A stretch of DNA of 49,767 bases, filler included, from Jimgerdemannia flammicorona (taxonomy: Eukaryota), in NCBI GenBank assembly GCA_003990765.1. It is 2 parts of 2 records of this genome, joined end to end, with 100 filler letters (N's around TTAATTAATTAA, not from the genome) between each part and the next. Parts side by side here need not be neighbours in the genome. Positions count along the whole stretch, not along the records: positions 24,937 to 49,767 come from RBNJ01000917.1; 1 more part is not named here. The stretch is one strand, 5' to 3'. The notes under the pieces were generated by a model. It worked only from the letters and a program-made list of their open reading frames with translations, made no database searches and was not told the origin of the DNA. The translations under genes and the position numbers were made by a program. Every line of letters begins with the position of its first letter. Positions within the stretch are counted from its first letter, which is position 1. Positions 10,649 through 38,240 of this stretch are shown piece after piece.

Positions 10649-10900
10649 AAGAGATTAGTATTTTAAATAGAAGAAAGAACAAATTAACAATTTTGTAATC
10701 CTGTATTTATAGCTCAAGATGAATAGTTTTATTATTTTCTATTATCATTTATTTTATTTTTGCAAGAATTTTTTTTTCTATTTTATAAAATTATTTCGTA
10801 ATTAAATTACTAACCATTCTGATCAAGCCCCCGATTGTGACAATCAGCAAATTGACAATTTCTAAAAATAATTCTTGGCGCTTTAGTGAACCCCTCTTTG

Positions 10901-10973
10901 CTGATGCGACTTTCCACAAAAGGAAACTAAGCATCGTTCAACATTCAATCAGGCTTGTGTCAAACCTCTCATG
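10901..10973 (+). repeat. 73-bp imperfect direct repeat (second copy 13493-13565) containing a CArG-like box
   Basis: CTGA(T/C)GC...TTTCCA(C/T)AAAAGGAAAC...ATCAGG(C/G)TTGTGTCAA(A/G)CCTCTCATG is present in both copies over the same span. Confidence 0.65.
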
Positions 10974-11144
10974 GTATGTGGGAAAGTCTTGGCAAGATGA
11001 CAAAGTCTTGGCACGTTGACAAAGTCTCAATCCTGGATCGGAACTTCGGGATGACTCGCGGGAACCCATCAAAAGGACCGGACACCCCGATGCGGGATTT
11101 CCGGAGAGGATACGCCATTGGGGATTGTCTTATAATCTTAAACC

Positions 11145-14501: not shown

Positions 14502-17500
14502 AACATTTGGGTGACACAAGACTCAGACAACACTTTTTACAACATTTTTGGTATCCAATGACTAACAACATGGATGGTAACAATCGAACTGGTGAGCATA
14601 CTGGCTAGGGGGGTGACAGCACCTTTGGCTGGCAGCAGGTGGGGAGGAGGGGAGATGGTTTGGGGATGCCAGGGGCCTCAATGGCTAGCCGGGGCCCTGG
14701 TGGTGGAGGGAGGGGCGGTCTGAGGCAGAGAGGAGGGGAGAGGTCGACCTTTGCTGACAAGGTCAGAATGGAGAAGATGGCTTCTGGGCTAGATAGTTGG
14801 CTGGACCTGGGGAAGACATCGATAGCTACTGCTGGGGGACAGGGAGGTGCACCCCGGGGTACTTCTGGTGGTAGGGAAGGGGCTGGAGTAGGGGCTGGAG
14901 ATGTGACTGTTGATGGGGCTGTGACTGGAGATCTGGCAAAAAATCCAGATGTGATGGCAGTTGGCAATTCGGGACTTAGAGTGGGCACGAGGCCCGGAGA
15001 CCTGGCTGATGGGGTGACATGCATGGTGTCGGCCCTGTTACTCAAGAAGTCGAGGTCAGAATTCACAGTCATGATGTGCTTCTGGGGCTTGGCAGTGATG
15101 GTGAGGATGATTTTGGGGCTGGTGGCACAGGAGGCTAAGAGAGCGGCGTCAGTGAAGTTCTTAAGAGGGAAGGAAGGAGTTGAGGTAGGGTTTGAGGAGG
15201 AAGACATCTTGTTGGCAGCCATGGAGAAGGGGGTGATGGTTGGCAGAGTTGTGATCTCTATGGTCCAGTGCATGCGCTGGGACCCCTGAGTGGTGTAGTT
15301 GATAGTGTTGGACCTCCCAACTGTGTCAAAGGAAAGGACCAGGGAGTTGGTTGTGGAGGCGGTCAAGGAGTATGGCGAGATTGTAGATGTTGGGTTTAAG
15401 GTCTGGGAGGGCACGGAGCTTAGAACTGGCGATGTTGATGTCAGGGTAAGGCTGGCTGGGAAGGAGAATACAGAGAAGTCGAGGGACTGGTCAGTGGCAC
15501 TGAGGTGGGGACAGGTGGAGTGTAAGGTCACCAGGGTGAAGGGGATGCCGGAGGAGGAGGAGGACCTGTTAGAGGCTCTGGAGGACCTGGAAGGGGCAGT
15601 GGTGAGGAGGAGATTGGCCTGGAAGGAGTTTGAGGCCAGGATGGTGGTGGGGGAGGTGGATGGGAAGAGGATCCAGATAGAGAAGGGGATCTGGGAAAAG
15701 ATGCAGGAGAGGAGGATCCAGAAGGAGCTGTTGGTGAAGTTGGGTGGAGGTGGGGCTGGCGGAAGCTCCAGGGAGAGAGTTGCAGGATCATGGGAGAGCG
15801 CCTGGGCTGAGGGAGAAGAGATGGCCCAGGGTGGGGTTCAGATTAGAGGTGGGGAGGGGAGGGAGGGCAATTTGGAGGCAGATGCCGAAATGGGTGAGGG
15901 TGTGCACCCTCAGTATAGTGTTCTGGATGGGGTGGAGGGGGAGGAGGAGTTGATGGATGTACCGGATGAAGAGTGGGATGAGTTGGTGAAAAGGAGTGTG
16001 CTGGTGGACCCTGAGGTAGATAGAGGACAAATTGCTCAGGGGGTGGTGGAGGCAGTGGAGGAGAAGTGGATATGGAAGACCTTGGAAGGGGTAGCAGCTG
16101 AAGAGCTGGGGGGTGAGGACTTCAGGGTGTTGGAGGAGAAGCATTGGGAGGAGATCCTACGGGGGGGGGAGGTGCCAAGGAAGATGAGGAATGAGATCCT
16201 GGTGGTCCTCCTGGAGTCAGTTGAATATCAGGTTGATGATCAGCGAGAGGAGGAACTTAGGAGGATTGTGAGTAACAGGGCAATTTTCTTGTAGAATTCG
16301 AGGAAGGGACTGGAGAAGTGATGCGCTGTCTGCTTGGACTATAGGGCTGATATGGAGGAAGTGGACAGGGTGGAATGTCAGGAAATCTTGGGGGCACTGG
16401 ATGTGCATGATAATGCAGAAGGTGAATTGGAAGCTGAGCAGTACTTGGATCTGGTGGGAGATGAGATGAGCATGGAATTATAGATTGGGGTCTCTATTGC
16501 AACATTTCTTCAATATGAACAGTACAACTAGGATTTTCTCATTGAATGTTAATGGGCTATGGGGGTCGGCTAGGAGGAAGTATATATTTGGTTGGCTTAA
16601 GGGACTGGATGCAGACCTCTTCTTACTACAGGATGTTCATTATGAGGCAGATGTAGACTTACAGGATTAGACTAAGGAATGGGGGGGCGCAGTAGTTTGG
16701 AGGGGGAAAGTGTGTATTCTCATTTGGAAAGGGATGGGGGACATTGGGAACATTGGACATTGGGGGTCTCAGGTGGTGTGGGGAGTGTGGAAGAGGCCTA
16801 GATGGGGCCCACTGATGGTCAGGTCCTGTTACTGCCCAGCTGAGAGAGGAGAGAGGGTGGATTGGATCTGCAGATTGAAAGAGGTTAGTGTGTTGGGAGA
16901 AGTTGGGTTAGACTGTATGGGGGGTGACTTCAACATGGTACAGGATAAAGAGTTGGACAGAACTGATGGAGGGTGAGGCATGCGGAGTGAAAGTAGTGGG
17001 TTGGGTGACTGGTTGGAGATGGAGAGGTTGTGTTCTCTAGTAGATTCAGGAAGACATTTTTGGACTGATCGGCAGATATACACCCACTGGGCAGCAGGAC
17101 TGGGCTCCAGGATTGACTGGGTCCTAATGGCAGAGTGTTGGGGAACTGATGTCTGGTCGGCGCTGGAAGTCATATGGTGTCCGTGGTCTGATCACTGGGG
17201 GCTGCTTGGAGGGGGGAGGTTTGGGGGAAATGTGGATGGGCCTGGACATTGGTGACTAAATTCTTCCCTGTTGGAGGATAGGATGTTGTAGGAGGGATGG
17301 GAATCGGAGGTGGTTGGAAATATCGGCAGGTGGCAGGAACAAGGACTGGAGATTGGGGACCGCTGGAGAAGGCTGAAGGCAAAGGCTCAGAAGTATTGGA
17401 GGGAAGTAGGGAAAGGGAAGTATGTCCAGTGTAGGTGGCAGGTGCTGTGGGCCTCGCGGCATCTGGCAGCACTCATGGAGAGATGGGCAGGTGTGCTGGA

Positions 17501-19240
17501 GGATGGGGCCATGACTGATTGGCATATTGCGAGGATTCGGCAGGAGGTGGAGGAGCTCAAAGGAGTGCTATGCAGAGAGGAGGAGGAGCAGTTGCAGGGA
17601 ATGGTGGCCTGCCTGCAGTAGCAGGGGCTTGAGGAGGGAGAGAGGCCTACCAGATTCTTGTCGCAGTTATTACAAGCACAGCGAATGAGGCAGCGGTGGG
17701 AGGGAGTTTTGGATGAGAATGGTGAGCTGGTGGTAGAGACTCCAGTGATTCTGGACCTACTGCAAACCCGGTGGAGGAATCTTTGGAGTGAGGAGGATGG
17801 GGGATTGGATGCCCTGAACATTGAAAGACAGCTGGGGGATTGGCACCCAAACCCTGCGATAGGACTTGGGGCATTGGGGGACCCAGTGAGTGGTGAGGAG
17901 ATTTGCAGGGTTGTGGCCTCAACGAGTATGGAGACAGCTCCAGGAGAGGATGGGCTTCTCTGGGATTTTTGGCAGAAGATGACTGGAGTGGGTGAGGTGC
18001 TAGAGGAAATGACTACTATGTGTGATGGAGTTCTTCAGTCTAGTGCTTGGATTGGGGGACAGTGCTTAGGGCTGGTCTCTTTGCTCTTTAAAGACAAGAG
18101 TAGGCGAGAGGACTGGAAGAACTGGTGGCCAATTATGCTTCTCAACATGGACCGCAAATTGGTGACAAAAATCTTGGTGATGAGGTTGCAAGGCATCGCT
18201 CAGCAGGTTCTTGGTGTGGAGCAACATGGGTTTGTCAGTGGTCGGTTGATTCGAGATGGGACGGCCTGGGTTCATAGAGTGATTGAAGGTACCTGGGTGA
18301 CAGGGGTGGATAGCAGATTGATGTTTCTGGACCAAGAGAAGGCTTATGATAGAGTGTGGAGAATATGGCTGGAGGGAGTGCTGAAGCGGATTGGTGTCCC
18401 ACCAGGGGTCCAAAGATCATTAATCAGTCTCTTGGAGGACAGTCAGATGGCATTGGTCATCAATGACCACAGGGGGATGACTTTTCCCTGGGACGTGGGG
18501 TACCACAAGAGGACCCCTTGTCACCCATATTGTATGCTCTTTCCCTGGAGCCACTATTGGACAAGATTCAGTATAAGATTGGAGGCTTGGACATTTTAGG
18601 GGTGAACTGGAAGATGGGGGCCTTTGCTGATGATATGGTGGTCAGACTGGGCTCCTTGGGAGATATGGGAGAGTTACAGAGGACTGTGGAATGGTATGAG
18701 CAGGGCTCTGGTGCTAAACTTAACTGGCACAAATGTGAGATACTGGTGCTGGGTACTGGAATTATTGGTGGCGATGTTATTGGGACAGTGGTACTGGTGG
18801 GTGAACTAGTGTGCTACTTGGGGATCTACTTCTCAGTGTTCAGATCTCTTCTTCCCCGAGCATGGTGGGACCATAAACTTCTAGAGTGGGGTAATGTCTT
18901 GCTGAGATGGGGAGGCCAGCATATGTCTCTTGCTGGAAGGGTGATGGTGTTGAATGTATACTGGATACCGAAACTATGGTATGTTGGATATCATTTGGAC
19001 TTCCCACTCTGGGTGGTTAAGGAGTTGTTGAAGTTGGCGAGGTCATGGATCTGGGGAGGGCAGCGAAGCCAGGTTGGTTGGGAGGTGCTCACACTGCCCT
19101 TAAAAAGAGGTGGGCTGGGCCTAGTGGACTTTACTAAGTGGCTTCTATGTCTGAGAGCCTGGTGGCTGCAAAGGGCGAGTGAGCTCAGGGGGCAGGAGTG
19201 GGTGCCACTCATGCAGAGGTTGTGGGAGGTGTGGTACTCC
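14502..19240 (+). mobile_element. L1/Tx1-like LINE copy A (intact 5' end, ORF1 14570-16483, ORF2 from 16515, cut off after the RT by copy B)
   Basis: Starts AACATTTGGGTGACACAAGACTCAG, like copy B. EN motifs SLNVNGL, GDFN, RIDW, SDH; RT AFADD. Sequence switches to the copy B 5' end after ...LWEVWYS. Confidence 0.93.
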
Positions 19241-22200
19241 AACATTCGGGTGACACAAGACTCAGACAACACTTTTTACAACGTTTTTGGTGTCCGACGA
19301 CTAACAAAATGGATGGCAATAATCGATCTGGTGAGCGTACTGGCCAGGGGGGTGACAGCACCTTGGGCTGGCAGCAGGTGGGGAGGAGGGGAGATGGTTT
19401 GGGGATGCCAGGGGCCTCGATGGCTAGCCATGGCCCCAGTGGCGGAGGAAGGGGAGGTCTGCGGCAGAGAGGAGGGGAGAGGATGACCTTTGCTGATAAG
19501 GTCAGGATGAGGAAGGTGGCTTCTGGGCTGGATAGTTGGCTGGGCCTGGGGAAGGCTTCGATGGCTATGGCTGGAGGTCAGGGAGGTGCACCTCAGGGTA
19601 CTTCTGATGGTAGGGAAGGGGCCAGAGTAGGGGCTGGAGATGTAACTGTTGATGGGGCTGTGACTGGGGATCTGGCAAAAAATCCAGATGTGATGGTAGT
19701 TGGCAATTCGGGACTTGGAGTGGGCACGAGGCCCGGGACCTGGCGGATGGGGTGACAGGTATGGTGTCGGCCCCGTTACTCAAGAAGTCGAGGTCCGAAT
19801 TCACAGTCACGATGTGCTTCCGGGGCTTGGCAGTGACAGCGAGGAGGATTTTGGGGCTGGTGGCGCAGGAGGCTAAGGGAGCAGTGACAGTGAAGTTCTT
19901 GAGAGGAAAGGAAGGGGTTGAGGTGGGGTTTGAGGAGGAAGATGCCATGTTGGCAGCTATGGAGAAGGGGGTGATGGTAGGTGGGGTTGTGGTCCCTATG
20001 GCCCGGTGTATGCGCTGGGACCCCCGGGTGGTGCAGTTGATGGTGTTGGACCTTCCCATGGTGTTGAAGGAAAGAACCAGGGAGTTGGTGGTGGAGGCAA
20101 TCAAGGAGTATGGTGAGATTGTGGATGTTAGGTTCAAGGTCTGGGAGGGCATGGAGCTTAGGACTGGAGACATTGATGTCAGGGTAAGGCTGGCCAGAAA
20201 GGAGAATACGGGGAAGTCGAGGGACTGGCCAGCGGCGCTGAGGTGGGGACAGGTAGAGTGTAAGGTCACTAGGGTGAAGGGGACTCAGGAGGAGGAGGAG
20301 GACTTGTTGAAGGCTCTGAAGGACCTGGAGGGGGCAGTTGCAAGGAGGAGATTAGCCTGGAAGGAGTTTGAGGCCAGGATGGTGGTGGGGGAGGTGGATG
20401 GGAAGAGGGTTCGGATGGAGAAGGGGGCTTGGGAGAAGATGCAGGGGAGGAGGATCCAGAAGGAGTTGTTGGCAAAGATGAGCAGGGGTAGGGCTGGTGG
20501 AAGCTCCGGAGAGGGGGCCACAGGGTTGCAGGAGAGCGCCTGGGCTGAAGGGGGTGAGATGGCCCAGGGTGGGGCTCAGATTGGAGTCAGGGAGGATAGG
20601 GAGGATAACTTGGAGGTGGATGCGGAAATGGACAAAGGTGGGCGCCCTCAGTATAGTGTTCCGAATGGGGCAGGAGGCGAGGAGGAGTTGATGGATGTGC
20701 CGGATGAAGAGTGGAATGAGTCAGTGAGGAGGAGCACGCTGGTGGACCCTGAGGTAGATGGGGGACAAATTGCTCAGAGGGTGGCGGAGATGGTAGATGA
20801 GGAGAAGTGGATGTGGAAGACCCTGGAAGGGATAGCGGCTGAGGAGCTGGGGGGTGAGGACTTCAGAGTGATGGAGGAGAGGCATTGGGAAGAGATTCTA
20901 CATAGAGATGAGGTGCCGAGGAAGATGAGGAATGAGATCCTGGCTGTCCTCCTGGAGTCTGTCGAGTATCAGGTTGATGATCAGCGAGAGGAGGAGCTTA
21001 GAAGGATTGCAAGCAACAGGGCACTTGTCTTGTGGAACTCGAGAAAGGGACTGGAGAAGTGGCGTGCAGTCTGCTTGGACTACAGGGCAGATATGGAGGA
21101 GGTGGACAGGGTGGAGTATCAGGAAATCTTGGGGGCACTGGATGCTTGGGATATTGTGGAGGGTGAATTGGAAGCTGAGTGGCTCTTGGACTTGGCAAGG
21201 GATGAGATGAGCATAGAATTATAGGTTGAGGTCTCTTCTACAATATCTACCCAATATGAACAGTATAACTAGGATATTCTCATTGAACGTTAATGGGCTA
21301 TGGGGGGCGGCTAGGAGGAAGTACATTTTTGGTTGGCTTCGGGATCTGGATGCGGACCTCTTCTTGTTACAGGATATTCAGTATGAGACCGATGTGGATT
21401 TACAGGATTTGACTAAGGAATGGGGGGGTGCAGCAGTTTGGAGGGGGAAAGTGGGTATTCTTGTTCGGAAGGGGATGGGGGACATTGGGGACATTGGACA
21501 TTGGGGGTCACGTGTGGTGTGGGGAGTATGGAAGAGGCCTGGATGGGGCTCGCTGACAGTTGGGTCTTGCTACTGCCCGGCTGAGAGAGGGGAGAGGGTG
21601 GATTAGATTCGCAGATTGAAAGAGGCTGGATTATTGGGAGAAGTTGGGTTTGACTGTATGGGGGGGGACTTCAACATGGTACGAGATAAGGAGTTGGACA
21701 GAATGGATGGAGGGAGAGGTATGTAAGGTGAGAGCGGTGGGTTGGCAGACTGATTGGAGATGGAAAGGTTGTGTTCTTTAGTGGACTCAGGGAGACATTT
21801 TTGGGCAGATCGGCGGGTATATACCCATTGGGCAGCAGGACTGGGCTCTAGGATTGACTGGGTTCTAATGGCGGAGTGTTGGGGAGTGGATGTCTGGATG
21901 GTACTGGGAGTCATATGGTGTCCATGGTCTGATCACTGGGGGCTGCTTGGAGGGGGGAGGTTTGGGGGAAATGAGGATGGGCCCGGACACTGGTGGCTCA
22001 ACTCTTCCTTGTTGGAGATATCGGCAGGTGGCGGAATTGAGGACTGGTAATTGGGGACCGCTGGAGGAGGTTGAAGGTGAAGGCTCAGGGGTATTGGAGG
22101 GAAGCGGGGAAAGGAAAGAGTGCTCAGCGAAGGTGGTGGGTGATGTGGGCCTCGCGGCATTTGGCAGTGCTCATGGAGAGATGGGCAGGTGCACTGGAGG

Positions 22201-24836
22201 ATAGGACTGAAACTGATTGGCATATTGCGCGGATCTGGCAGGAGGTGGAGGAGCTCAAAGGGGTGTTATGAAGGGAGGAAGAGGAACAACTGCAGGGGAT
22301 AGTGGCCTGCTTGCGATGGCAAGGGCTTGAGGAAGGGGAGAGACCTACCAGGTTCTTGTCATGGTTGTTACAAGCACACTGAACGAGGCAGCGGTGGGAG
22401 GGAGTTTTGGACAAGGATGGCAAGCTAGTGGTGGGGACCCTGGCGATTTTGGACCTATTGTGGTCTCAGTGGGGGAACCTTTGGAGTGAGGATGAAGGGG
22501 GACTGGATGCTCTGGACATTGAAAGGCAGCTGGGAGATTGGCACCTGGACCCTGCCGTGGGACTTGGGGCATTGGGGGACCCAGTGAGTGGTGAGGAGAT
22601 TTGCAAGGTGGTGGCATCTACGAGTAAAGGGACAGCCCCGGGAGAGGATGGGCTCCCCTGGGATTTTTGGCAGAAGATGACAGGGGTGCATGAGGTACTA
22701 GAGGAAATGAGGGCTATGTGTGATGAAGTTCTTTGGTCTGGTGCCTGGATTGGGGGACAGAGCTTGGGGCTGGTCTCCTTGCTTTATAAGAACAAGGGCA
22801 GGAGGGAGGATTGGAAGAACTGGCGGCCAATCATGCTTCTGGACATGGACCGCAAACTAGTGACAAAGATCGTGGTGTTGCAGTTGCAAGGGATCGCACA
22901 GCAGGTGCTTGGATTGGAGCAACGTGGGTTTGTTGGAGGTCGGTTGATTCGAGATGGGATGGCCTGGGTTCATGGAGTGATTGAAGGTGCCCGGGCTACA
23001 GGGGTGGATGGCAGATTGGTATTTCTGGACCAGGAGAAGGCTTATGATAGAGTGCGGAGAATATGGCTGGAGGGAGTGCTGAAGCGGATTGGTATCCCCC
23101 CGGGGTTCCGAGGTTCATTGGTCAGCCTTTTGGAGGACAGTCAGGCGGCATTGGTCATCAATGGCCACCGGGGGGTGTCCTTCCCCCTGGGCCGTGGGGT
23201 GCCACAAGGGGACCCCTTGTCACCCATATTGTATGCCCTTTCCCTGGAGCCACTACTGGACAGGATCCGGTGTAAGATTGGCAGCTTGGACATTTTAGGG
23301 GTGAACTGGAAGGTGGGGGCCTTTGCTGATGATATGGTGGTCAGACTGGGTTCCTTGGGGGATGTTGGAGAGTTGCAGAGGACAGTGGAATGGTATGAGC
23401 GGGGTTCTGGTGCTAAACTGAACTGGCACAAATGTGAGATGATGGTGCTGGGCACTGGAATTGTCGGTGGCGATGTTATTGGGACGGTGGTTCTGGCCAG
23501 TGAACCAGTGCGCTACTTGGGGATCTACTTCTTGGTGTTCGGATCTCTTCTTTCCCGGGCATGGTGGGACCATAAACTGCTGGAGTGGGGTGATGTCCTG
23601 ATGTGATGGGGAGGCCGGCATATGTCCCTTGCCGGAAGGGTGATGGTGTTAAATGTGCACTGGATGCCGAAACTGTGGTATGTTGGGTATCATTTGGATT
23701 TCCCACCATGGGTGGTTAAGGGGTTGTTGAAGATGGTGAGGTCGTGGATCTGGGGAGGACAGCAGAGCCAGGTTGGTTGGGAGGTGCTCACACTGCCCTT
23801 GGAAAGAGGTGGACTGGGCTTAGTGGACTTTACTAAGAGGCTCTTATGTCTGAGGGCTTGGTGGCTAAGGAGGGCGAGTGAGCTTCAAGGTCGGGAGTGG
23901 GTGCCACTCATGCAGAGGTTGTGGGAGGTTCGATACTCCCCACGTGGTGGCTCCAGTGACCTGCTTGCAATGGTGGCCATGGATGGGAGCCGGAGAATGC
24001 GGTTTACAGGCTTTTGGTGGGGAGCGGTGGATGGTGCTAAGAAAATCGGCCTTCAGTGGCGAGGTGACGAGACCGAGGAGGTTTGGGGACCGCAGATATG
24101 GAGATGGGACAGGCTTCTATTGGGTGGTGTTCTGGTGGAGGACTTTCAGCTTGGCAAGGGTCTGGAGTGCCTGCGAGGCCTAGGTGGAGACCTGTGGCCT
24201 GAAGCCTGGCAGAGGGTTGGAATTGGGGAAGAGTGGGATTGGAATGGGCTCTGGCTTTGGAGCAAACGGGTGAGGCAGTGGCTGCCCCCCAAGTTCTGGT
24301 TGGCATGGTAGTGGGTCCTGTGGCGGAATGTAATGCTGAACTATCGGTCTGGTCACTTGGTGGATGGTGGGGTATTCGAGTGCAAGGATTGTTTCAATGT
24401 TGGTCAGGAGGGAGGAGTGGTACAAACGCCTGAACATTGGCTTGACGAGTGTGAGGTTTTGGGGGAGTTCTGGAGATGTATAATGGACAGGTTAGGGTTG
24501 GGGGCTGGGGGAGGAGAGGGAGGAGGGAGATGGGGAGAGCTTCACCAGCAATTAGTGGGTGGGGTCGGGGACGAATGGCTGACCCTTGGCTGGGCCTTGG
24601 CTATGTGAGTTGGGTTGGCAGGGCATTGGGTGCATGTATTTGAGGACGGGTGCCGGGTTGGAGTTGGTGAAAAGGTGGTACAGTGGGAATGGTTGCTGTT
24701 GGACATTTTAAATAGCTGGTGGCAGGGTTGGGGTATGAGTGGGGGGTACCGCGGGGGTTTGGTGCAGTGTATCTCCCAGAAGAGTGATGGGAGGGTTCAG
24801 GTAGTGGGTGATTGGGTGGTACTTGGGCAGGGGGAG
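19241..24836 (+). mobile_element. L1/Tx1-like LINE copy B (ORF1 19309-21224 with a frameshift near 19740, ORF2 from 21256), runs into the contig end
   Basis: Least decayed copy: ORF 19752-21224, RT ORF 22407-23606 (DQEKAYDRV, QGDPLSP, AFADD) and CKDC-x14-HWLDEC finger in ORF 24333-24608. Confidence 0.95.
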
Positions 24837-24936
24837 NNNNNNNNNNNNNNNNNNNNNNNNNNNNNNNNNNNNNNNNNNNNTTAATTAATTAANNNNNNNN
24901 NNNNNNNNNNNNNNNNNNNNNNNNNNNNNNNNNNNN
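24837..24936. other. Artificial contig linker (44 N + TTAATTAATTAA + 44 N)
   Basis: Exactly 100 bp, symmetric, with a central 12-mer giving stops in all six frames. Confidence 0.97.
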
Positions 24937-27900
24937 GAAACCCCAAGGATCTGAGGAACAACCATGGAGCAAGAGAATGCCTTCCTCAGAGCCCAGATAG
25001 CCAACTATGAGAACAGACCAGCACCCACAAATCCGACTCCATTCAGGCAACCACAGCAGCAGCAACCATCAAGAGTTCAAGAAGATCCCATGATAACGCT
25101 CACCAAGCAAATGAAGGACCTGGCCATTGCAGTTGCCCAGCTGAACAACCAAGGTAGAAGACAACAAGACTACCATCATGATAACAGACCAGACTACCAG
25201 CAATAAGACAACAGAGGTCCTGCCCCTGCACTACCAGCTGCAACTACAGCCTCATCAGTGACTGGTTCCTATGGTCCCACTTGCTTTAACTGTGGAAATC
25301 AAGGCCACATCCAGAGGAATTGTCCAAGGAACTAATCCATCCAGTCCAATGACAGAAATGTCAACCTCTTTCAGGTAGATGAAGAGACTCAGGAAATGGA
25401 AGAAGAAGCAGCCTGGCTCCATGGTCAAGAAGATGACATCTACCCATACTTCGAGGCTTTTCCATCCAAGGTGACATGAGAAGCTGCCCCTGCAGAGACC
25501 AGAGGACGAGGAAGACCACAAAGGAACCCCCCACCTCAACTGCCAGTAACAATATCTACAGGCAAGCATCTGTGACATGGCCATTCTTCTTTGGACACTC
25601 CACAAGAACAGGAGAAGCAAGTTAGAAGAGATACTCCTGAACCAGAAGCCGGACCATCTAGGACAACCCCCAGCTATACCCTGCCAGACCTTGAAGAAGA
25701 TGAGCATATGAGCATAGAATCTTCAGCTGATGAAATGCCCATCAGGAATGAGAGACTATATCCCAAGGGACCAAGACACCGAAGAAGCAGCAAGCCCCAT
25801 GCAGCAGCCTCACTTTGGGAACATATCCGCCTACAGAATGCTGGTCTTACAGTTGAGCAAATCCTCAAGAATGCACCAGAGGTCAGGCGAAAATTCCTGA
25901 AAGAAGCCAAGGAAGATACCAAGAGACTTCCAGTCCAAGGACCACATACTCAAGAATCTAGTACTATCCACACAGTCCATGAGAGCCAGCGATATAAACA
26001 TCAATCTACAAGACTCACCAATGGAAAAGTGTATAGTGAAAATGCCAGAATTCTCATCGATACTGGAGCAGCAGTATGTATCATCACCCAAAGGATGTTG
26101 GAGCAAATTGGATGGGGAATAGATGAAGGAACCAAAGCAAGAGTTATCATGGCCGATGGATCAGCTTCCACACCCCTTGGACTTGTCAGAGACATCCCCA
26201 TTCAAGTCGGAAAGGCCTGCCTCAATGTACCCAAAGCTGTCGTGACCCCTGCAACCTCTTATGACCTGATCCTGGGAACTGACTGGTTAAGCCAAGTTGG
26301 AGCCAATGTAGATATCAAGAAACAACTCCTGGTCTTCTCCATTCATGGACAGAAGCACAAGGTGCCCATTGACTTGAAAGGATCATCTAAAAGGACAAAT
26401 CAAGCCTCAGAAACAGAATGGCAAGGATATGGTGACACCCCCACTACTACTGAGGATGAAAGTGAGGCCAATTTCCTACAAGAACTAGGAAGTGATTTTG
26501 ATGCCCCAAGGGACCAAGAAAGCGAACAAGAAGACTCTTTCATTGGAGTTATTGGTGTTGAAGGCCTGGAAGAAAGCATTGATAGAGCCATTAATGCAAG
26601 GGCAGCACTTGAGTTTGCAGGACCTTCTGCTCAACCACTACTACCACTGGTAGAAAATCAGATCATGTGAGCCTTTCATCAAGGCATATGTGAACATTTT
26701 ATCAGCTTCCACTCACCAAGAGATGATTGCAGCAATTGCTGAATCCTGGATCTCAAGAAGGTTCCAATGTCAGAAATTGATGATAAGGACGAATTGAAGC
26801 AAGCACCATCCCACAGCTGAACACAACCTCCAACCCCAAAGACCTTCAAGAAGACCTGTAAGGAGGGACAGAAGATCCTCGCCTGCCAAACATTCGAGTC
26901 CCTCACCATCGAAGGAGAAAGCAACAGCTCTTACACTATCACCTGGGCCCTCCAGATCACACAGCCCACCTATGACAAGTATTGGAAGAGATTCCCTACC
27001 AGTAGGGAGGTCAAACAGTGAAATGAAGACTTTGTTAAGAAGGGACATTGTGATTGTGGAAAAACCTTTACCTGCTACTAGTATGAACATTGAGATGTTT
27101 ACCTTAGCAAAGATGTCTACAAGAGCCAAGTCAAGAGAAAGGATCCCACCTTGCAAGAACCTCGAATTTGCTGGGCCTGTCAGAAGTGCAAAGAAATCAA
27201 CCATGAAGAAGATTGCAAGTTCAAGAGCAAGACCTCTATCTGGGACCTACTATTGGAAGTTCTTGCCATCATTTGCTGGTACTGCCACCCTCATCAAGGA
27301 AAAGAAGGTATCAATCTTGCCTTCATCCTTATGGAAGCTCTGGACCCTCTAGGAAAGACTGGATTCAATTACACAAGAAACTCAAAGACAGGAGCTCACT
27401 GGCCTTTCTTCAAACCAGAGTGCATAGACTTCTCACCTACAATGGCAACAGCTGAAGCACCATTTCTCAAAGCTCAACCAATTATCCAGGTCAAGCTGCT
27501 TTCACCCTGGGCACAACCACCTCTTGCACAAACAGAAGGATCAGTTGGTTATGACCTCTGCCTCCCCTACCAAGCAAGAATCTGATCCAGAAGTACCAGG
27601 ACTTTTGACCTACAGATCGCACTCACTATACCACCTGGGCAATATGGACAATTGGCCTCAAGATCCTCATTGGCAACCAAAGGAGTCACAGTAGAAGGAG
27701 GAGTCATTGATCAGGACTACCGAGGTCCCTTGAAGGCCATTATCCGAAATTCTAGTAGAGCCAGTCGATTCTTCAGCCCTATGAAAGCCATCTGCCAAAT
27801 CCTGTTTATCAAGATATCACAGCTGACCATCCAAGAGGTAGACCAACTAGAAGATATCAACAGAGGACAAGGAGGCTTTGGAAGCACCAATAGAAATCTA

Positions 27901-30900
27901 CAGACACCACCTATCGAGGTTCATTTGGCAATAGTTGCTCAATTCCGACAAATGAGACCCCATATCTGCCGCCCAATCCGAGTAAGAGAAGACATCCTCC
28001 TATAGCCCTACCAGCAAAAAGGCCTAGATGTGCACCTACTAGTAGAAGCAAACAACTTGATATTTGCACCATCACTGGAGCTTCAAAAGGAATACCACAT
28101 CCTCCTGGCTGAAGAACGAATTCATGACCAGATGTCACCGATCCATATCCCTATCAGAAACTCGGGCTTTGAAGTGATAACTATCCCCAAGAGAACAACA
28201 CTGGGATATTTCGAACCACTGATAGACACCTACGAGGAAGAAGTCTTCGAATTCTTGGGAAATGGCAAGTCCTCTCTGGTGAGACTGACGGTACCAGGGA
28301 GGAAGACTCAGCAAATTCAGCAATCAAAGCCATTGACATCGAGACAACTCTAACCAAGGACCAGCAACAACAGATACAGGAGTTGATAGAGGAGTACAAA
28401 AATATATTTACCACCACATATGATAACTTCCCACCATATCAATATGGAGAACACCCTATATATACTGGAGATGCAAGACCAATCCGACAATGACCCTACC
28501 AAACACCACATCATTTGATTGAATTTGAACAACAACACATAGATGAAATACTATGAAATAGAGTCATCAGACCATCATCAAGCCCCTGGGCTTCACCAGC
28601 AATCATAGTACCAAAGAAAAGAGAATGGAGATTAGTCGTGGATTTCAGAAAACTCAACAAAGTCACCACAGAAGATGCCTACCCACTGCCAAGAATTGAT
28701 GACCTCATCAATGTCCTCAGAAAAGCCAAATACATGACCACTACCAACCAGTTCCAAGGATTCCAAGTAATACCCATTGCCAAAGAAGATATCTGCAAGA
28801 TGGCCTTCATCACCAGATGAGGACAGTATGAATACCTATGAATGCCCTTTGGACTCTGCAATGCACCCGCCTCATTCTAATGAATGATGAACTATGTCTA
28901 CTGGGACCTCATTGGAAGAAATGTACTAGTGTATATAGATGATATAATCATCTACTCTGAGACATTCAAGCAGTATTTGCAAGACCTCTGCGAAGTATTC
29001 AATACCATTCAAAATTCAGGACTCAGACTCAATGCCAAGAAGTGCTTCTTCGGAAAATATCAAGTCGAATATCTGGGATATGTTGTCTCAGCTCAAGGAA
29101 CACATGCCAACTCCCGCAAGGTGGAGAAAGTCAAGAACTACCCAACCCCGACCTCAGCAAAGGAGACCCTATCCTTCCTTATGCTGGCATCCTACTATCG
29201 ATGATTCATCCCAAGGTTTTCAGATAAGGCAGCACCTCTCCGAGATATCTCCAAGAAGGACCAACCATTCTACTGGAGAAAGGAACAACAAAAGTCATTC
29301 GACCTACTCAAGAAGGCCCTTACTGAAGCCCCTGTCCTGGTGCGACCAGACTTTGGCAAACCGTTCATCCTGGCAACTGATGCCTCAGCCTTAGGACTTG
29401 GATCAATTCTGTCTTAGCAAGATGACCAGAAGAAGGAGCATGTTATCAAATATGCTAGCAAGGCCACAAATGAAATACAAGCGAACTATGGAGCCACTAA
29501 GTTGGAATACCTAGCAGTGGTTTGGGCTGTGGACCACTTCTGACACTATCTCTTGGGAAAGAGATTCACTCTCATTACTGACCATCAAGCTCTACAATGG
29601 TTGTTCAACAAGCCGGAGCCCTCAGGAATCTTTGCTAGATAGATCATGTCTCTGCAAGAATATCAGTTCACTATTGTCTACAAGAAAGGTGCTAAAAATT
29701 CCAATGTCAATACCCTGTCAAGAATCCTGTGAAACCAATAAGAAGGGAAGGAGCCCCCACAAGAGAAGGCTGCTTCCTGCTCACCCAAATGAACCAAGAA
29801 TTGCGCCTCGCCCTCACCTGGAGTCTGCACCATAGAAGCTTCAAGAAAGGAATCCAACCAGCCTATAAGTTGTTTATCCAAAGAAATTTCAAGAAATTCC
29901 AAGAAGGCGATGGTGAACTTTGGAGAGTAGAAGGAGAGCAGTATACCCAAGTTCCAAAAGAAGAAGAAATATTGAAGATCCTGACAACAAATCATGACCA
30001 AAATGCACACTGAGGAATTGGCGCCACAATCGCAAGAATCAAGAAGCGATACTGGTGGCCCAAGATGAGAAAACAAATTTCAATGCATATTCAATAATGT
30101 GATACCTGCCAAAGATACTGACAAAAGCCTATCAACAGAGCACTATTAATACCAATCGCAGTACTAGCTGGAGTCTTCCAAAGACTGGGAATAGACATTG
30201 TTGGACCCCTACCAGTAACCAGCCAAGGAAGACACTACATCCTCACTATTGAAGACCACCTGACAAAATGGCCTGAAGCCTTTGCCATTGAGACTGCCGA
30301 TGCCCAGACAATTATTGGAATCCTGTATGATGAAATTTTCAGCTGCCATGGTGTGCCCAAGGAAATCATTACAGACTAAGGCCGAGAATTCATCAACCAA
30401 GCTATGAAGACCTTCACAAGCAACTTCAAGATCAAGCTGCGACTGACAACAGCCTACCACCCACAGGCAAATAGACTCACTGAACAAATGAACCAGACCA
30501 TCAAGCGAGGTCTCAGTAGAACCAGAGATTAACTAAACTGGGATATCTATCTACTGGCAATTCTGTTCAGCATTCATACCTCTAAGGCAACTGCTACCCA
30601 ACAGACCCCCTTCTATTTGGTGTATGGCCGAGAAGCTCATGATCCTACTGAATCAGTCCAGCTAGATCTGTCGAAATGAGTCACAGAAGAGATCACCTAG
30701 TTACATGACATATGCCAGCAAGCATGAGGATTTATTGCCAAGGCACAAGAATGACAAAAGAGGTACTACGACTGTAAAGCTGACCTCGAACCCCTGCTCA
30801 TTGGACAAAAGATTCTGGTGTACCGTACCATCATAGAAGGAAATTGGAGTGCCAAGTTTGAATCAAAATGGGAAGGCCCCTATCTCATACACTAAGTATT

Positions 30901-31013
30901 CTCAAACCACACTTATCAACTCAAGACCTTGGATAGAGTTACATATACTCAAGACCAAGATACACTGCAACCACATAAGACTCTACTATTCAAGAGAAGC
31001 AAAATGCATTTGA
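24937..31013 (+). pseudogene. gag-pol polyprotein remnant
   Basis: ORFs at 24964, 25591, 27151, 27652 and 28030 share one frame, broken only by point stops. RT/RNH/IN follow with a few frameshifts; integrase ends ...KTKIHCNHIRLYYSREAKCI* at 31013. Confidence 0.88.
27481..27891 (+). pseudogene. Trimeric dUTPase domain within pol, between protease and RT
   Basis: All five motifs: GSVGYDL (I), LASRSS (II), GVIDQDYRG (III), AICQ (IV), RGQGGFGST (V). One in-frame TGA at 27583. Confidence 0.93.
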
Positions 31014-32530
31014 ACAATCCTGTTCACTCTGTCTGTATTGTCTCCATTGGAGATACGATGGATGTTTTACTTGGAACTCAAGAAAGCCAACAATGTTGGA
31101 ATCAGACTCAAGCCCATCTACGTGACAGACATTGTTACTAAGAAATTGCCTTGGATTACAAGAAATACTATTTCCAATGGGTTCGAACCCCCAGCCATGA
31201 CTATGGGAGCCCTCACCCTAGATAAGGATGACCAGTCCTCACAAATGCACCAACATTCTGCTCACCCCTGGAGTTAAGACCACCCAACTCTGTATAATCT
31301 TCACTACTGAGGACAGCTCTAATTTTGCAAGGGGCAGATGTGATGTACATAATTGACAATGGAGTACTGGTGACTGCTAAGATCAGACGACATAAGGCAT
31401 GACAATCAAATAGACAGCCTGACCCATTAGGTGATTATCCCAAAAGAAGACAAGATGATCCGAGCCAAAATGAAGACCACGTATTTAAGGAACCATACTC
31501 CACCTCAGAGATCGGCACCAAAGAACCAAGTACCCACCACACAATACCTCCCATTCACCAATCCAACCAGACCTCCCGCTGCTCTACCCCTTTGCCTGGC
31601 CCAAAGACCCTGATCTTTGAAGCTATCAAGAATGCCATCTAGTGCCCAGATACTTCCGAACACTTGAACTTCTACACTGAGGACCTTGGACACTTCATCA
31701 ACTACTGGTATATAATGACCCAATAGCTCAAAGACACTACTGAACGAATGACCCTCTGGCCTGACTACGAAATTGGACACCACCTTCGCAATGAGACTCA
31801 AGAAGATGACCGGGAAGACCTCATTACCGAATTGTTAACCACCAGCTGGCTAATCAAGAGAGCCCTCCATGTCTACCAAATCTTCCACCATATTCCCTGG
31901 GCTATAGTACACTTACAAGGAGTGACGGCTGGAAGTCTTGCCCGCCTCTCAACTGAAGATGCAGACTGGATAGAATCAGAAGTAGCCAACTCTATTGGCA
32001 GCAACTGTGTCACCATAGGAAGCCAACAAACCAAACCTACTCAGCCAGGTTTCCACACCACCCCACTCTGAGACAACCATCAAGGTCACCTAATGAGTCT
32101 TATGGAGATATTTGAAGGACCACCCATTACCATAGAAGCACCCATTAGAGCTACCCCAACCACCCACCACCCTGCCAGCCACAATTCACATCTCATCATT
32201 TGGGAACCAAATCAAGAAGAAGCCCAAGAGGTCTCTGTCTTTGAAGAGGAAGCCCAAGAACCCCAAGACCCTGCCCCTGAAGAAACCCCCTCTGACACTG
32301 AAACTGACGAGTTTTCAGAAGAAGAAGAGGAGCAACAGAGAGTCTATCTGTCCTCTGTCTGCATTCAAGCTGTTCAAGGGTTGGAGAATGTTGTTGAAGA
32401 TGACTGGTCACTTTTCTACCCCCTCACCTCTTGGCCGGTGCTTCCCCCTTTTGAGGAGAGGTATGATGAAGAAGAAATCTTAACCCAGCAAGATTTGCCT
32501 GCCATGGATGAAGGATACTATTTCCTCTAG
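31004..32530 (+). pseudogene. Third ORF of the Gypsy element (~509 codons, unknown function, acidic C-terminus)
   Basis: One frame from ATG 31004 (overlapping the integrase stop) to TAG 32530 with about eight point stops and no apparent frameshift. Joins ORF-track pieces 30929-31141, 31748-32071 and 32093-32530. Confidence 0.65.
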
Positions 32531-33850
32531 AAGTACCACCCGTCAGCCATGAGAATTGTGCAGCCTTCATGTCAGCAAGTCTGAATCCAGCATTGCTATC
32601 CAGTGCCACCATTTTCAGCATTTGTCAGCAAGTCAGCAACACCCATTTTCAGTGATACCACCCACAACATCCATATCCAGTACTAGCACTCATCTTATCC
32701 CAATTCGGTGCAAACAATTGTCACACCCATTTTCAGTGTTGTCATCCTCCACAACCGTTTCTGACAACAATCAGCATTCATGTCTGCTCATCCGAATCCA
32801 GTGTTGCTATCCCCTACAACCCAATCCATAGTAAACAATAGCCTGCACCTTGCATTGTGCAAGCCAATAGCATAGCAAATGTTCGCCACAATGTAGTATA
32901 CCTTAGCCGCATCCATAGCTAGCAAACTTGTATAAATAACCCATATTCTTAGAGTGAATAAACCTCAGTCAGACAGTTTTATAGAGAAAACACACTGCCT
33001 CCAAGAGACCGGAAAATTCTGAGAACAAGATAATAACCTAGAGCAACAGATCACTCAGAAGTTTGAGTTAAGGAATTTCTCTTACTGCCCGAATTTCAAG
33101 TTTTGCCACCATGAAAAGGATTTAAGACTATGGACCACCCGCAAGTCAGTTTGTGTTTAAAAGTAAAAAGGATTACAAAGAAACCACTGCCTCCAAGAGA
33201 CTGGATAAATTCTGAGAACAAGGTAACTAGAGCAATGATCGCTCGAGGTTTGAGTTAAAGAATTTTTCTCTTGCCATGGAAAGAAAACGTTACCCGACCA
33301 CTGCCATTCGACCACCATTCGAGACCTGAGACCCAGCCTAGGATTCAAGACATGACCGCTACGCATTCAGACTGCCATTCGGACCATGCATTCAGACCGC
33401 CATTTGAGATTCAAGACCCAGAAACCCAAGGATACCCAGCCAAAGGATACTAGACCACCAAAGACTGACCCGCTGCCAAAGACCCAAATGACCGCCAAGA
33501 ACCTTTCAAGTTAACAAGTCAAGATGGACGAGTGAGACATCAACCTCCATTTTCCTGACCTACTGCACCATGAACCGCTTAAAGCCAAGCCCATCGTCAC
33601 TGCATAAATTCAAGTTCGCCGCCAAGTTAATCGCTGCCAGAAATGCCCTTATCCACTAAACAATTGAGCCACCATCATTGAACAATCAAAGTCCCGCTAT
33701 TATATCAATTACTACACGAATCGAATGACCTGTCATGTGACCATCGACCTGTGAACATCACCAAAGTCTTCAGTTATACATTGCATGCTTCACCAAGTAG
33801 CACATTGAGCCATGCTTGAAGAGAACTAGGGATACAAACCCGATGCCACA
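31339..33850 (+). repeat. Putative 3' LTR (start uncertain); TATA/AATAAA core at 32925-32968; internal ~90-bp duplication from ~32993 and ~33185
   Basis: Purine-rich AAGGGGCAGA followed by TGTGAT, the same start as the other LTRs; ends CACA. No 5' LTR is available to confirm the start. Confidence 0.5.
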
Positions 33851-34329
33851 ATATATAGATATGATATATTGAGCTTAGCTCTACTCTATAATTTCTTAGA
33901 AGTTAGATCATCATCTCTGAAATACTTATTATTATCAGATTTCTTACTTAATACTCAAGATATATATCAGTTATATATATATATTACTATATTAATAGTT
34001 TTAGTCCAATAAGTAGTTATATTAATTATTATATATATCATTTCTATAGTCATATAGTTAAATCACTCAGCTAAGCTATTTTGCCAGAGCATATACATAT
34101 ATATATATAGCTGTCATTTCATAATATATATTGTATTTTCTCAAGTATTACTTAAATATACTATTGATATATTTATATCTATTATCTGAGTATATGTATA
34201 ATATATAATATATATTCTGTTTCATTCTTAATAATCACTTTGAACTCTTTGAATTTCTCTAAGACTTTATTCTTTGCTGACAGACTTCTATATTTATTAT
34301 CAAACCAATTTATTCTAATATAATATATA

Positions 34330-35685
34330 ATACTCCTACCCCTATCTAATTCCTCTAAGAAGTCTATCCCCCACCCCTTTATGATTAAATATAATCAGAC
34401 TATTAATCTTCTCAACTATCCCACTACTCTGCTCATAAATCTCCTCTACTAAGCAATGATGATAGCTACTCTGGAGACCCCACCCCTTCAACTAGTAGAC
34501 AAAATATCCACCATCAGTCTCTCTCTCCTCACCACCTACTTCTCTATACTTATTCTTCTTTTTTTTTCTTAAATATATATAGCTAATATATATCAAGTCA
34601 ACCTTACTCAAACTACTAAAGCCCACCCAACAGTGAGTTACTCATTATTAACACACTCTACCAATCATATTCTCAAGTTATCTCAATAATTCCCTCTCTC
34701 TCCTGTCATCTCTCTACTCTCAGACAATCTTTAACTATCATCTAAAAGTTTTTAAGAATCTTTCACTCATTCAGCCAATGTTCAGACATTTGTATAAAAC
34801 CCCCCTCCTGTCCTATATATATTATAACACTCCTCACAATCAAAGACCCTGCTATCTATCAAATATTTTGAATAAAAGTTCAACATAATATTTCTTCTCA
34901 ATATATACTACTGTATATTCAATACTTTGGAGGAAACCACTACTATATTATAGTACTTCAAGATCAGATATCAGCCCAGTTCTATATTTTACCAATATCT
35001 GCTATCTATCAGACAGCTGGTTATAGATTCTGTCCTACTCTCTATTAGTACTCTATATCAGCACTAATATCAAGTTCAAGAGTGTGGAACATCTCAACAG
35101 CAGTCTGTCTCACTGCTATATTACAGATCCCCATAGGACCTCTCCCTCATTTCTCTGCCAATAGAGTACAATATGATCAATATGATAAGTACTCTCTACT
35201 ACTCTCTATCAGAACCCCTTATACTATAAGCATCAGCTGCCATATAGTTTAATCATTATCAACAGATTACCTGAAGAGTCTTGGAGAGAAAACCTCACCC
35301 CCCACACCTTCTGTATCAAAGGCACCCACCCACCTCCCCTCAGCTCAATGACTCTCTTCAACCTCTAAGCCCTAAGACAGTACAGCTACTTTAGGAGGTC
35401 CACCAGGCCCAGGCCCCCTTGATCCACTAGTGCCACCAAAATCTTCCAACCTATCTAGCTCCACCTCCCAATATATAGTCCTTGGCCATCCTCAGCAACC
35501 TCAGCAACCTCTTCACCACTCAGGCTGGAAAGTCTAAGTAATATGCCAAATATCATAACTTTGGCAACCAGTAAATATTCAGAATTGACACCTGCCCAGC
35601 AAGAGAGATGTGGAGCCCCCCCCCCCAGCTCCAAAGGGCCTCCCTCCATTCCACCATATTCCTTTCTCACCAAGCCTTGGGCAAG
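34330..35685 (-). mobile_element. 5'-truncated, strongly decayed LINE 3' fragment of the same superfamily
   Basis: Minus-strand remnants LPKAW..., ILNIYWLPKL, GGLGLVD, WFPPK, MLNFY, VFDCEECYN and EHWLNE parallel the ORF2 C-terminus of the other copies. The 3' UTR may extend toward 33851. Confidence 0.8.
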
Positions 35686-35686: not shown

Positions 35687-36590
35687 TGCATTCTCTGAAA
35701 AAATCCAGTGGTAGAAAAAATCAGGTTGAGGGGAAAAAACGGCGCGGCTATAAGGAACCACCGCACTAACCTTGATCGATTGCCGGAACACGGGACGCGG
35801 TTTCCATTAGGAAATGCAAACAAATGGGGAAAAAATCCAATTTTGTGGCGCACTTAGTCATTTGGCCTTCCACCAAATAATGAGGGGCAAGTTCAATTGG
35901 TATCCACGAACCGTTTGGCTGCGAATGTATGCTCCTCAATACAGGGCACACTCGTGGTGCATGTATGTCCATGTCGTTAATTGAAAATTCCGATACGTTT
36001 GGATCTCTGGACGTATTATCCACTGCCACATGTACGCATGTATACACTTCTGACCTCAATAACCGTCCTTGGAAGCTTAAATAACACACCTTTTCGCTCA
36101 CAATATCCGGTCTGGAATTCGCAATGGATAAATGAACGATTATGGATGGATAAACAGCGTTGCTGTTGTCACTATTGTCGTCGTTACTGTCATTGTCAAT
36201 ATGGACGGGATTGCACATAGCGTTTGGGGGAGAGGTGGAGGGGGGGAAAGGATGCAATTGGTGCATCTTCTGAAAAAATCCAGTGGTGGAAAAAATTGGG
36301 TTCAGGGGGAAAACGAAGGTATCCCCAATTATAGCAAAAGTAACGGAACGGCAAACCGAAACCACAGCGCTAACTTTGGTCGATTGCCGGAACACGGGAC
36401 GCGGTTTCCATTAGGAAATTTTTACACGTGGCGCGCTTGCTCATTTGAGCTTCCGCGAAATAATGAGGGGCAAGTTTAATTGAAACCCACGCATCGTTTG
36501 GTTGCGAATGTATCCTCCTCAATACAGGGCACACTCTGGTGCAAGTATATCCATGGCATTAATTGAAAAATACAATACGTTCTGATCTCG
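35687..36590 (+). repeat. Imperfect direct duplication of ~320 bp (35687-36008 and 36262-36590)
   Basis: Collinear blocks with an identical 40-bp core TCGATTGCCGGAACACGGGACGCGGTTTCCATTAGGAAAT at 35776-35815 and 36380-36419. Confidence 0.9.
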
Positions 36591-37365: not shown

Positions 37366-37849
37366 CGGCCACAACTACAATTCTACCAACCCCAAACAAA
37401 TTTTAGTATAATTTCTTTAAGGTTACAAAGAAAGTATCAATATTTAAACACTATATATTTCTTCATAGTAGATATATATAGTATTGAAATCTTACAATCG
37501 CGCGTATATACGGAATTCTTAGAATTCGTCGAATAAAAAACATGCCGCGATTCAACGTCTAGCTGTAATGTTTGAACCCCCACTTGAACCCAACTCGCAG
37601 ATATCGGAACCGCAGCGAAGAGAAAAACCATGATTGAAGTTCAATGTATATATATTTGGGAGAAAAAAGAAGGTGCAAGAAGAGTGGATGCGATGAGCAA
37701 AACCGGCCCAGATAAAAGGGTTGTGGAGAGCGTGAGGTGGTTGTGGAGAGAGTGAGGTGTAGAGGTCAGGTACGGCCCAAATGGAAAGGCAGGTGGTGTA
37801 TGAGAGGAGAAGGGATAAAGAAAAGGCTGGTGACGTGGGCCACGCGAGC

Positions 37850-38240
37850 GGAAGAAGAGAGAGGCTGGTGACACGGGCCGCGCGGAGGTGGTTGGTGATG
37901 CGAACCACAAGACTCAGTGGGGCTGGTGACGCGTGCCCCCCGCGAGAGAAGAGGTGGGGAGGAACGATTAGCGGTGAGATGAGAGAGGGAGCGTGTCACT
38001 GGTGATGCAAGCAGCATGAGTGCGATTGAGGGAAGCCCATAAATGCAACAAACGAGAGACGGGGCAAGTGGAAGAAGAGAGAGGCTGGTGACGCGGGCCA
38101 TGTGGAGGTGGTTGGTGATGCGAACCACGCGAGTCAGTGGGGCTGGTGATGCGAGCCTCGCGCAGAGAAGAGGTGGGGAGGGATGGCAGCATGAGTGCAA
38201 GTGAGGGAAGCATGTAAATGCAACAGACGAGAGACAGGCA
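37850..38240 (+). repeat. Tandem duplication with a ~220-bp period and recurring GGCTGGTGA motifs
   Basis: GGAAGAAGAGAGAGGCTGGTGAC...GGTTGGTGATGCGAACCAC at 37850 and 38070; GCAGCATGAGTGC...AAATGCAACA in both units. Confidence 0.85.

Follow-up and report, generated by a model that had tools for sequence, protein, structure and literature searches.

A dUTPase between protease and reverse transcriptase

Does the dUTPase-like sequence found amid decayed reading frames of Jimgerdemannia flammicorona (assembly GCA_003990765.1) belong to a transposable element, and what was its part there? The question is raised by a stretch of 49,767 nucleotides, called the window in the following, whose second contig (RBNJ01000917.1) starts at position 24937. 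A preliminary description had placed a complete dUTPase at 27481..27891, between the protease (PR) and the reverse transcriptase (RT) of a Ty3/Gypsy retrotransposon. According to the analysis presented here, this region is very probably the dUTPase domain of a degenerate Ty3/Gypsy (Metaviridae-type) long terminal repeat (LTR) retrotransposon. The coding regions of the element follow each other in the order Gag with a CCHC knuckle, PR, a C-H-C-C motif and Cys-rich region, dUTPase, RT, RNase H, integrase (IN) and a third open reading frame (ORF3).

The motifs of dUTPases are numbered I to V; motif III is rich in Asp, and the C-terminal arm has the form RGxxGFGST. The domain and its motif stretches, the latter located by alignment, are:

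27469..27891, plus strand: trimeric-type dUTPase; contains the five motif stretches below and an in-frame stop (27583-27585)
27538-27558, plus strand: dUTPase motif stretch GSVGYDL
27658-27675, plus strand: dUTPase motif stretch SRSSLA
27697-27726, plus strand: dUTPase motif stretch GGVIDQDYRG
27787-27807, plus strand: dUTPase motif stretch AICQILF
27862-27891, plus strand: dUTPase motif stretch RGQGGFGSTN

Translation of 27481-27891 yielded 137 codons with a single stop, the TGA at 27583-27585, due to which the domain is not open for translation. With stops read as X, PF00692 (dUTPase) matched residues 856-978 of the read-through product P0001, i.e. positions 27520-27888 of the window. The score was 94.4 bits compared to a cut-off of 22 (E 5.9e-27), and the match covered positions 6-128 of the 129 in the profile. 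A sequence search of the PDB matched 74 different dUTPase chains (E<=0.001), with 2okb_A (E 1.2e-21, aligned from end to end) at the top; 2d4l, the entry used for comparison with the betaretroviral nucleocapsid (NC)-dUTPase, was matched at E 2.1e-10. Agreement to this extent goes far beyond coincidence. Furthermore, AlphaFold was applied to the cassette of C-H-C-C motif and dUTPase from P0060, a relative of the element. The predicted local distance difference test (pLDDT) values of the dUTPase core were 70-90, and Foldseek returned dUTPases alone for this model, with a solved structure matched at E 2.7e-11.

The domain in the frame of Gag and protease

The element occupies three reading frames, which contain the following features:

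24955..28350, plus strand: frame A read-through P0001, 1132 codons with 12 stops; C-terminus of Gag, PR, Cys-rich region, dUTPase and linker
25282..25323, plus strand: Gag/nucleocapsid CCHC zinc knuckle CFNCGNQGHIQRNC (Pfam zf-CCHC, E 3.2e-07 in a stop-free piece)
about 26017..26340, plus strand: retropepsin-type aspartic protease (gag-asp_proteas 43.4 bits, RVP_2 30.6 bits; LIDTGAA at 26053-26073)
27892..28320, plus strand: dUTPase-RT linker of about 140 codons with no assignable domain
28173..29840, plus strand: frame B read-through P0011, 556 codons with 13 stops; RT and RNase H
28608-29084, plus strand: RT in frame B, with YIDD at 28932-28943
29274-29663, plus strand: RNase H in frame B
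29696..30990, plus strand: integrase in frame C, with H2C2 at 29960-30118, the rve core at 30179-30463 and GPY at 30875

CCHC knuckle, PR and dUTPase are all located in frame A (24955-28350) with no frame change between them; RT, which begins at about 28608, uses a different frame. As the preliminary description had claimed, the five motifs thus share the frame of Gag and PR and are placed between PR and RT; its coordinates were right as well. Its word "complete" is justified for the motifs and the length of the domain; it does not apply to the coding state, given one stop in the domain and 12 in frame A. Pfam analysis of the read-throughs yielded zf-CCHC with 23.9, RVT_1 with 100.7, RT_RNaseH_2 with 116.1, Integrase_H2C2 with 60.2 and rve with 43.6 bits. 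In addition, 95 stop-free pieces of at least 30 amino acids (aa) from 24938-34000 were analysed. Ten of them had Pfam matches, exclusively to retroelement domains and dUTPase, and these pieces followed the order CCHC, PR, dUTPase, RT, RNase H, IN. The order PR-RT-RNase H-IN and the Gypsy-type RT and RNase H bear out the assignment to Ty3/Gypsy. No match to the chromodomain PF00385 was found in P0012 at E<=1 or in any of the stop-free pieces; the region is rich in stops.

A host gene or exon could have come to lie beside or inside the element by chance, via a nested insertion or a misassembly, all the more as the window joins two contigs and is dense in nested repeats. However, the dUTPase shares the frame of PR over 3.4 kb without a frame change, and the contig join is 2.5 kb upstream. 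Its CpG depletion equals that of the rest of the element, and PR-dUTPase-RT is encoded in one open reading frame (ORF) in six independent relatives described below. A chance neighbourhood is therefore extremely unlikely, and the dUTPase is better regarded as a domain of the element.

Decay of the copy

In total, 43 in-frame stops (25 TGA, 11 TAA and 7 TAG) and two frame changes were counted in the element, of which frame C (29696-32527) carries 18 stops. The ratio of observed to expected (o/e) CpG is 0.16-0.32 over the element, whereas gene-like stretches of the window (11-14 kb and 36-38 kb) have values of about 1.0. At seven of the 13 stops in RT-RNase H, at least three of the six relatives agree on one residue (Arg at 4, Gln at 2 and Trp at 1 of them), a pattern to which C-to-T and G-to-A transitions give rise. 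The copy is dead, being riddled with mutations, and consequently has no present activity.

The predominance of TGA among the stops (25 of 43) would also result if this codon had a sense meaning in a variant genetic code, in which case the element would be intact. Yet TAA (11) and TAG (7) occur as well, and the two frame changes would interrupt the element under any code. Moreover, the relatives that agree at TGA sites of RT-RNase H contain Arg, as predicted by the decay of CpG-containing codons, and the relatives do not all share one residue, as would be necessary for a reassigned codon. A variant code is next to impossible on these grounds, and the stops are read as decay.

The frame A to frame B shift was located within 28173-28350; this change between dUTPase and RT is more likely a consequence of decay. 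The linker in front of RT comprises about 30-45 residues in the relatives and about 100 more in the window, and the extra stretch occurs in none of the six. A second dUTPase-like fold in the approximately 150 residues following the dUTPase was considered and ruled out (hhalign probability 0.5%, hmmsearch -1.1 bits).

Relatives of the element

The RT-RNase H sequence was searched among longer proteins; 3422 of the 7588 scored candidates matched at E<=0.001, and 120 of these are listed. These homologues bear Gypsy-type domain sets. PF00692 was detected in six of the 120 matches listed, namely P0050, P0060, P0061, P0065, P0070 and P0126 (sources ENA/JGI), and a dUTPase profile run over the stored proteins identified the same six alone among these matches. 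All six have the order PR-dUTPase-RT-RNase H seen in the window, and P0060 and P0070 also contain the C-H-C-C motif. Unlike the decayed copy in the window, they are intact single ORFs reaching from Gag to RNase H. Their RT-RNase H sequences are 42-44% identical to that of the window according to BLASTP, and up to 48% over the alignment used for the tree.

In order to place the element, 121 proteins including P0011 were collected at E<=1e-20. Six with matches of at most 350 of the 440 query residues were dropped, which left 115 rows for the RT-RNase H tree. The smallest well-supported clade containing the window consists of the window and exactly the six dUTPase-bearing relatives, with a value of 95 in the Shimodaira-Hasegawa-like approximate likelihood ratio test (SH-aLRT). 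In the next larger clade, which has 15 rows, these are joined by plant and algal sequences, and the next-nearest rows include chromodomain-bearing algal proteins. Long-branch joins were flagged elsewhere in the tree. Judged by RT-RNase H, the element thus falls within a clade formed solely by dUTPase-bearing relatives among the matches listed.

All six relatives' ORFs stop 30-47 residues past the RNase H match, and at least four of the six lie on contigs with room for further sequence. In the window, IN is located in a different frame from RT-RNase H. It is therefore plausible that the break between RNase H and IN may be a trait of the lineage, with IN encoded apart from RT-RNase H.

A second search was performed with the part of frame A reaching from the Cys-rich region to the linker. 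Of 8000 scored candidates, nine proteins were obtained, the dUTPase being the part that matches; when P0002, one of the nine, was compared directly with the window, the C-H-C-C motif aligned as well. P0003-P0010 include Copia-type polyproteins (RVT_2, gag_pre-integrs) that likewise contain a dUTPase domain, and the diatom Chaetoceros tenuissimus is the named source of one. The capture of dUTPases thus extends beyond Gypsy elements.

The C-H-C-C motif and the Cys-rich region

Two features precede the dUTPase in frame A:

26689..26739, plus strand: C-H-C-C motif CEHFISFHSPRDDCSNC, the decayed counterpart of the motif of the relatives
26740..27468, plus strand: further Cys/His-rich stretch with six stops, a second KKG-x-C-x-C-G-xx-F stretch and two C-x2-C pairs

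The existence of the Cys-rich stretch, which the preliminary description had noted, was confirmed; the space between PR and dUTPase contains 15 Cys in the window. P0060, P0070 and P0002 have in common the motif C-x-H-G-[IV]-R-F-Y-S-P-x-D-E-C-x-x-C, and in the alignment of these three with the window 10 columns are invariant in all four sequences. P0070 holds a second, looser copy. A counterpart of like length to the stretch 26740-27468 is present in none of the three aligned sequences. The spacer between PR and dUTPase comprises 26-306 residues in five of the six relatives (P0050 left out); in P0061 and P0065 it is 26-33 residues long and not Cys-rich. Neither in the read-throughs of the window nor in five relatives, the latter analysed at E<=0.5, was a Pfam family assigned to the motif or the Cys-rich spacers.

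In P0060 and in P0002, 18-20 residues separate the motif from the dUTPase downstream; it follows PR in the former and precedes PR in the latter. In P0070 and the window it also lies upstream of the dUTPase, with extra Cys-rich sequence in between. Since motif and dUTPase stand together before PR in P0002 and after PR in the others, both may travel together.

A conserved third reading frame

The region 3' of the integrase contains a further coding unit:

31544..32530, plus strand: ORF3 region in the frame of IN, with a conserved core up to about 32347, an acidic tail and a stop at 32528-32530

A search with P0133 (30953-32527, IN frame) against 1.84 billion representatives gave seven matches at E<=0.001. 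Three are stand-alone proteins of 214-342 aa that start near position 31544 of the window and share 29-35% identity; one is a 200-aa protein with 76% identity, and three are short pieces of 40-56 aa. A profile search with the ORF3 alignment found 3 proteins only. On account of these homologues, ORF3 can be regarded as a genuine coding region that is conserved and ends in an acidic tail, and the conserved region mentioned in the preliminary description does exist. A structure model based on a five-sequence alignment was unusable (mean pLDDT 36.3). Atlas look-alikes of residues 1-235 of the ORF3 relative P0137 reached a best score of 0.89 and belonged to unrelated clusters, which offered no lead.

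A third conserved region after IN, together with a dUTPase as is typical of some retroviruses (PMC2238898), would fit an endogenous retrovirus or an env-bearing virus-like element with ORF3 as its envelope gene. Against such an origin, the maximal Kyte-Doolittle mean over 19 residues is 0.59-1.07 in all six ORF3 relatives and not above 1.07 in ORF3 itself. There is no signal-like or transmembrane-like stretch in the ORF3 core, and no Pfam family was found for ORF3 and its relatives. The integrase contains a GPY module, and RT-RNase H groups with Gypsy polyproteins. Furthermore, the betaretroviral dUTPase is N-terminal to PR according to the same article, whereas the dUTPase of the window follows PR. 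An env-bearing origin is accordingly very unlikely, and by the tests applied ORF3 is not an envelope gene. As ORF3 is without a membrane segment, the term "virus-like", by which the preliminary description had characterised a possible undescribed lineage, is not supported for this Ty3/Gypsy element.

Weighing the assignment

The interpretation of the region as the dUTPase domain of a formerly active element has to be weighed against several observations that speak against it or weaken it. With 1 stop in 137 codons, the dUTPase is not clearly poorer in stops than frame A as a whole (12 in 1132), so there is no sign of preservation. Motif IV reads AICQ in the window compared to [RK]IAQ in most aligned sequences and RVCQ in P0070. 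Neither a pair of LTRs nor a primer-binding site nor a target-site duplication can be demonstrated for the element, whose 5' end falls outside the contig. The AlphaFold model of the P0060 cassette gives pLDDT values of only about 41-50 for the C-H-C-C motif, and that this motif may be a zinc knuckle is a guess by analogy. Finally, a free tree of 16 dUTPase rows, among which there are no named cellular dUTPases, puts the window outside the group of the six relatives (85/91), without resolution from P0002 and the Copia-borne dUTPases. Due to this position, the dUTPase of the window may have had a separate origin.

Of the separate trees of RT and dUTPase proposed in the preliminary description, that of the dUTPase is the less informative: the RT clade unites the window with the six relatives, and the free dUTPase tree does not. 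Forcing the window and the six into one dUTPase clade was not rejected and even gave a slightly higher likelihood (approximately unbiased test, p 0.555). Hence, a joint inheritance of RT and dUTPase is compatible with the data, although not proven by them.

The departure of motif IV from its commonest form might also indicate that the dUTPase fold was kept for a non-catalytic, structural or regulatory role in the life cycle of the element. A precedent is the dUTPase-related gene of bovine immunodeficiency virus, for which a non-catalytic role has been reported (PMC4261571). On the other hand, none of the five motif stretches, GGVIDQDYRG and RGxxGFGST among them, has been lost from the window or from any of the 15 other retroelement dUTPases in the alignment. 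This retention points to selection for catalysis in the ancestors, and a purely non-catalytic role appears unlikely compared to a catalytic dUTPase.

Comparison with known dUTPase-bearing elements

The order PR-dUTPase-RT has been described previously. Among fungal Gypsy elements, it is found in the Ty3/Gypsy polyprotein of PosPlaTy3-5 from Postia placenta, just as in the window, and Phanerochaete chrysosporium and Tmt1 of Tuber melanosporum are cited in the same article (PMC2864245). The bdelloid rotifer elements Juno, Vesta and TelKA have a dUTPase between PR and RT and varied ORF3s after pol (PMC5408684), and giant planarian Gypsy elements show the PR-dUTPase-RT order as well (PMC6431247). 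In Entomophthora muscae, an enrichment of dUTPase Pfam domains was linked to transposons (bioRxiv 10.1101/2023.09.13.557621).

Compared by description, the window differs from these elements in several respects. The described fungal elements bear a chromodomain, and none was detected in the window; the descriptions available from PMC2864245 mention neither a C-H-C-C motif nor such an ORF3. In Juno, an extra zinc knuckle follows the dUTPase, whereas the C-H-C-C motif of the window precedes it. The rotifer ORF3s are env-like or correspond to a GDSL esterase or a DEDDy exonuclease, and the ORF3 of the window matches none of these in Pfam.

A similarity in design is provided by Mason-Pfizer monkey virus (MPMV), whose NC-dUTPase is a homotrimeric fusion (PMC1802613). 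In this reverse-transcribing element, too, a zinc-knuckle domain is N-terminal of the dUTPase. However, the MPMV domain precedes PR and has the CCHC nucleocapsid as its knuckle, whereas in the window the Gag CCHC is 1.4 kb upstream and the C-H-C-C motif is nearer to the enzyme. The likeness is thus one of design and would not imply kinship.

No description of the C-H-C-C motif or of ORF3 was found in the literature searched, which did not extend to GyDB, Repbase and the.DOC supplements of PMC2864245. In summary, the PR-dUTPase-RT architecture is already known from fungi, rotifers and flatworms. The C-H-C-C motif, ORF3 as a small family without a Pfam match, and the possibly split pol go beyond the published descriptions found or add to them; these modest new details rest on a handful of relatives.

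Limits of the element and remainder of the window

The ends of the element are affected by the composition of the window:

24837..24936, no strand: contig join of 44 N, TTAATTAATTAA and 44 N; the element begins directly after it
32894..32973, plus strand: LTR-like promoter/polyadenylation core with TATAAATA at 32931 and AATAAA at 32957

The join is artificial, and features on its two sides are not genomic neighbours. The element opens at the first base of the second contig, 24937. For this reason the data lack the 5' LTR and the greater part of gag, which need not be missing from the genome, and Gag is represented by its C-terminal 110 residues or so alone. The capsid part of Gag would fall before the contig start, and the CCHC nucleocapsid knuckle is present. 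No long direct repeat flanking the element was found in the window, which lacks the 5' end. A core of about 60-80 nt with TATAAATA and AATAAA occurs at four sites: 32894-32973, 40611-40686 (minus strand), 6712-6769 (minus strand) and 48251-48308 (plus strand). The first probably sits inside the 3' LTR, the ends of which cannot be placed because the 5' LTR is absent; all four probably represent LTR promoter/polyadenylation cores that belong to related elements or to solo LTRs. Apart from this core of about 80 nt, blastn and tblastn found no further copies of the element within the window. A direct repeat of 96 nt with 84% identity (32988-33082 and 33181-33269) lies 3' of ORF3 in the presumed 3' LTR or untranslated region.

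Remnants of non-LTR retrotransposons resembling long interspersed nuclear elements (LINEs) extend over 15000-24836 (plus strand) and 1-6000 (coding on the minus strand). They contain RVT_1 matches at 1277-1783 (minus strand) and at 17622-18596, 18467-19483 and 22383-23603 (plus strand), as well as a sub-threshold Exo_endo_phos match at 21217-21603. Their coding strand is extremely rich in G (40% G, 14.5% C, a GC skew of about +0.5) and has a CpG o/e of 0.14-0.39. The blocks 7000-11000, 34000-35000 and 39500-43000 are AT-rich (23-30% GC); their CpG o/e is close to 0, and their TpA/ApT ratio is 1.0-1.3. Parts of them have a (CpA+TpG)/(ApC+GpT) below 0.85, which resembles repeat-induced point mutation; the Gypsy element differs in that only CpG is depleted.

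The segment 11648-12590 (plus strand) with normal CpG is likely a host gene. One exon matches PC-Esterase (PF13839, E 5.9e-09), and the Atlas look-alikes of this exon are of mixed taxa (Haptophyta and Ascomycota). Segments 35738-36536 and 37844-38163, also with normal CpG, contain direct repeats: 78-109 nt about 600 nt apart (86%) and 100 nt at a distance of 220 nt (87%). No tRNA genes and no Rfam matches were found in the window.

Possible function and significance

In active ancestors, the dUTPase would have been released from the polyprotein, or would have acted within it, as a homotrimeric dUTP pyrophosphatase. By analogy, it would have lowered dUTP at the site of reverse transcription, so that less uracil was incorporated into the cDNA. 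The same dUTP-lowering role has been proposed for retroviral dUTPases; we know of no test of the purpose that these enzymes serve outside retroviruses. If the C-H-C-C motif acted as a zinc knuckle, it might have held the enzyme near nucleic acid, as the NC-dUTPase fusion of MPMV does. Even an intact dUTPase would not stop the C-to-T decay of integrated DNA that is seen here.

A more far-reaching proposal is that the C-H-C-C motif and the dUTPase form one mobile cassette, and that a family with a zinc-tethered dUTPase, a split pol and ORF3 represents an undescribed Ty3/Gypsy clade. This proposal is speculative and at present rather doubtful. If it were true, a zinc-tethered dUTPase would have evolved independently, in analogy to the betaretroviral NC-dUTPase.

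Reverse-transcribing elements have captured dUTPases repeatedly, and the locus of J. flammicorona represents one more lineage with the order PR-dUTPase-RT. The copy itself is a fossil, and an effect on the host via its proteins is not to be expected. Its intact relatives would offer a compact test case for a dUTPase with a neighbouring C-H-C-C motif.

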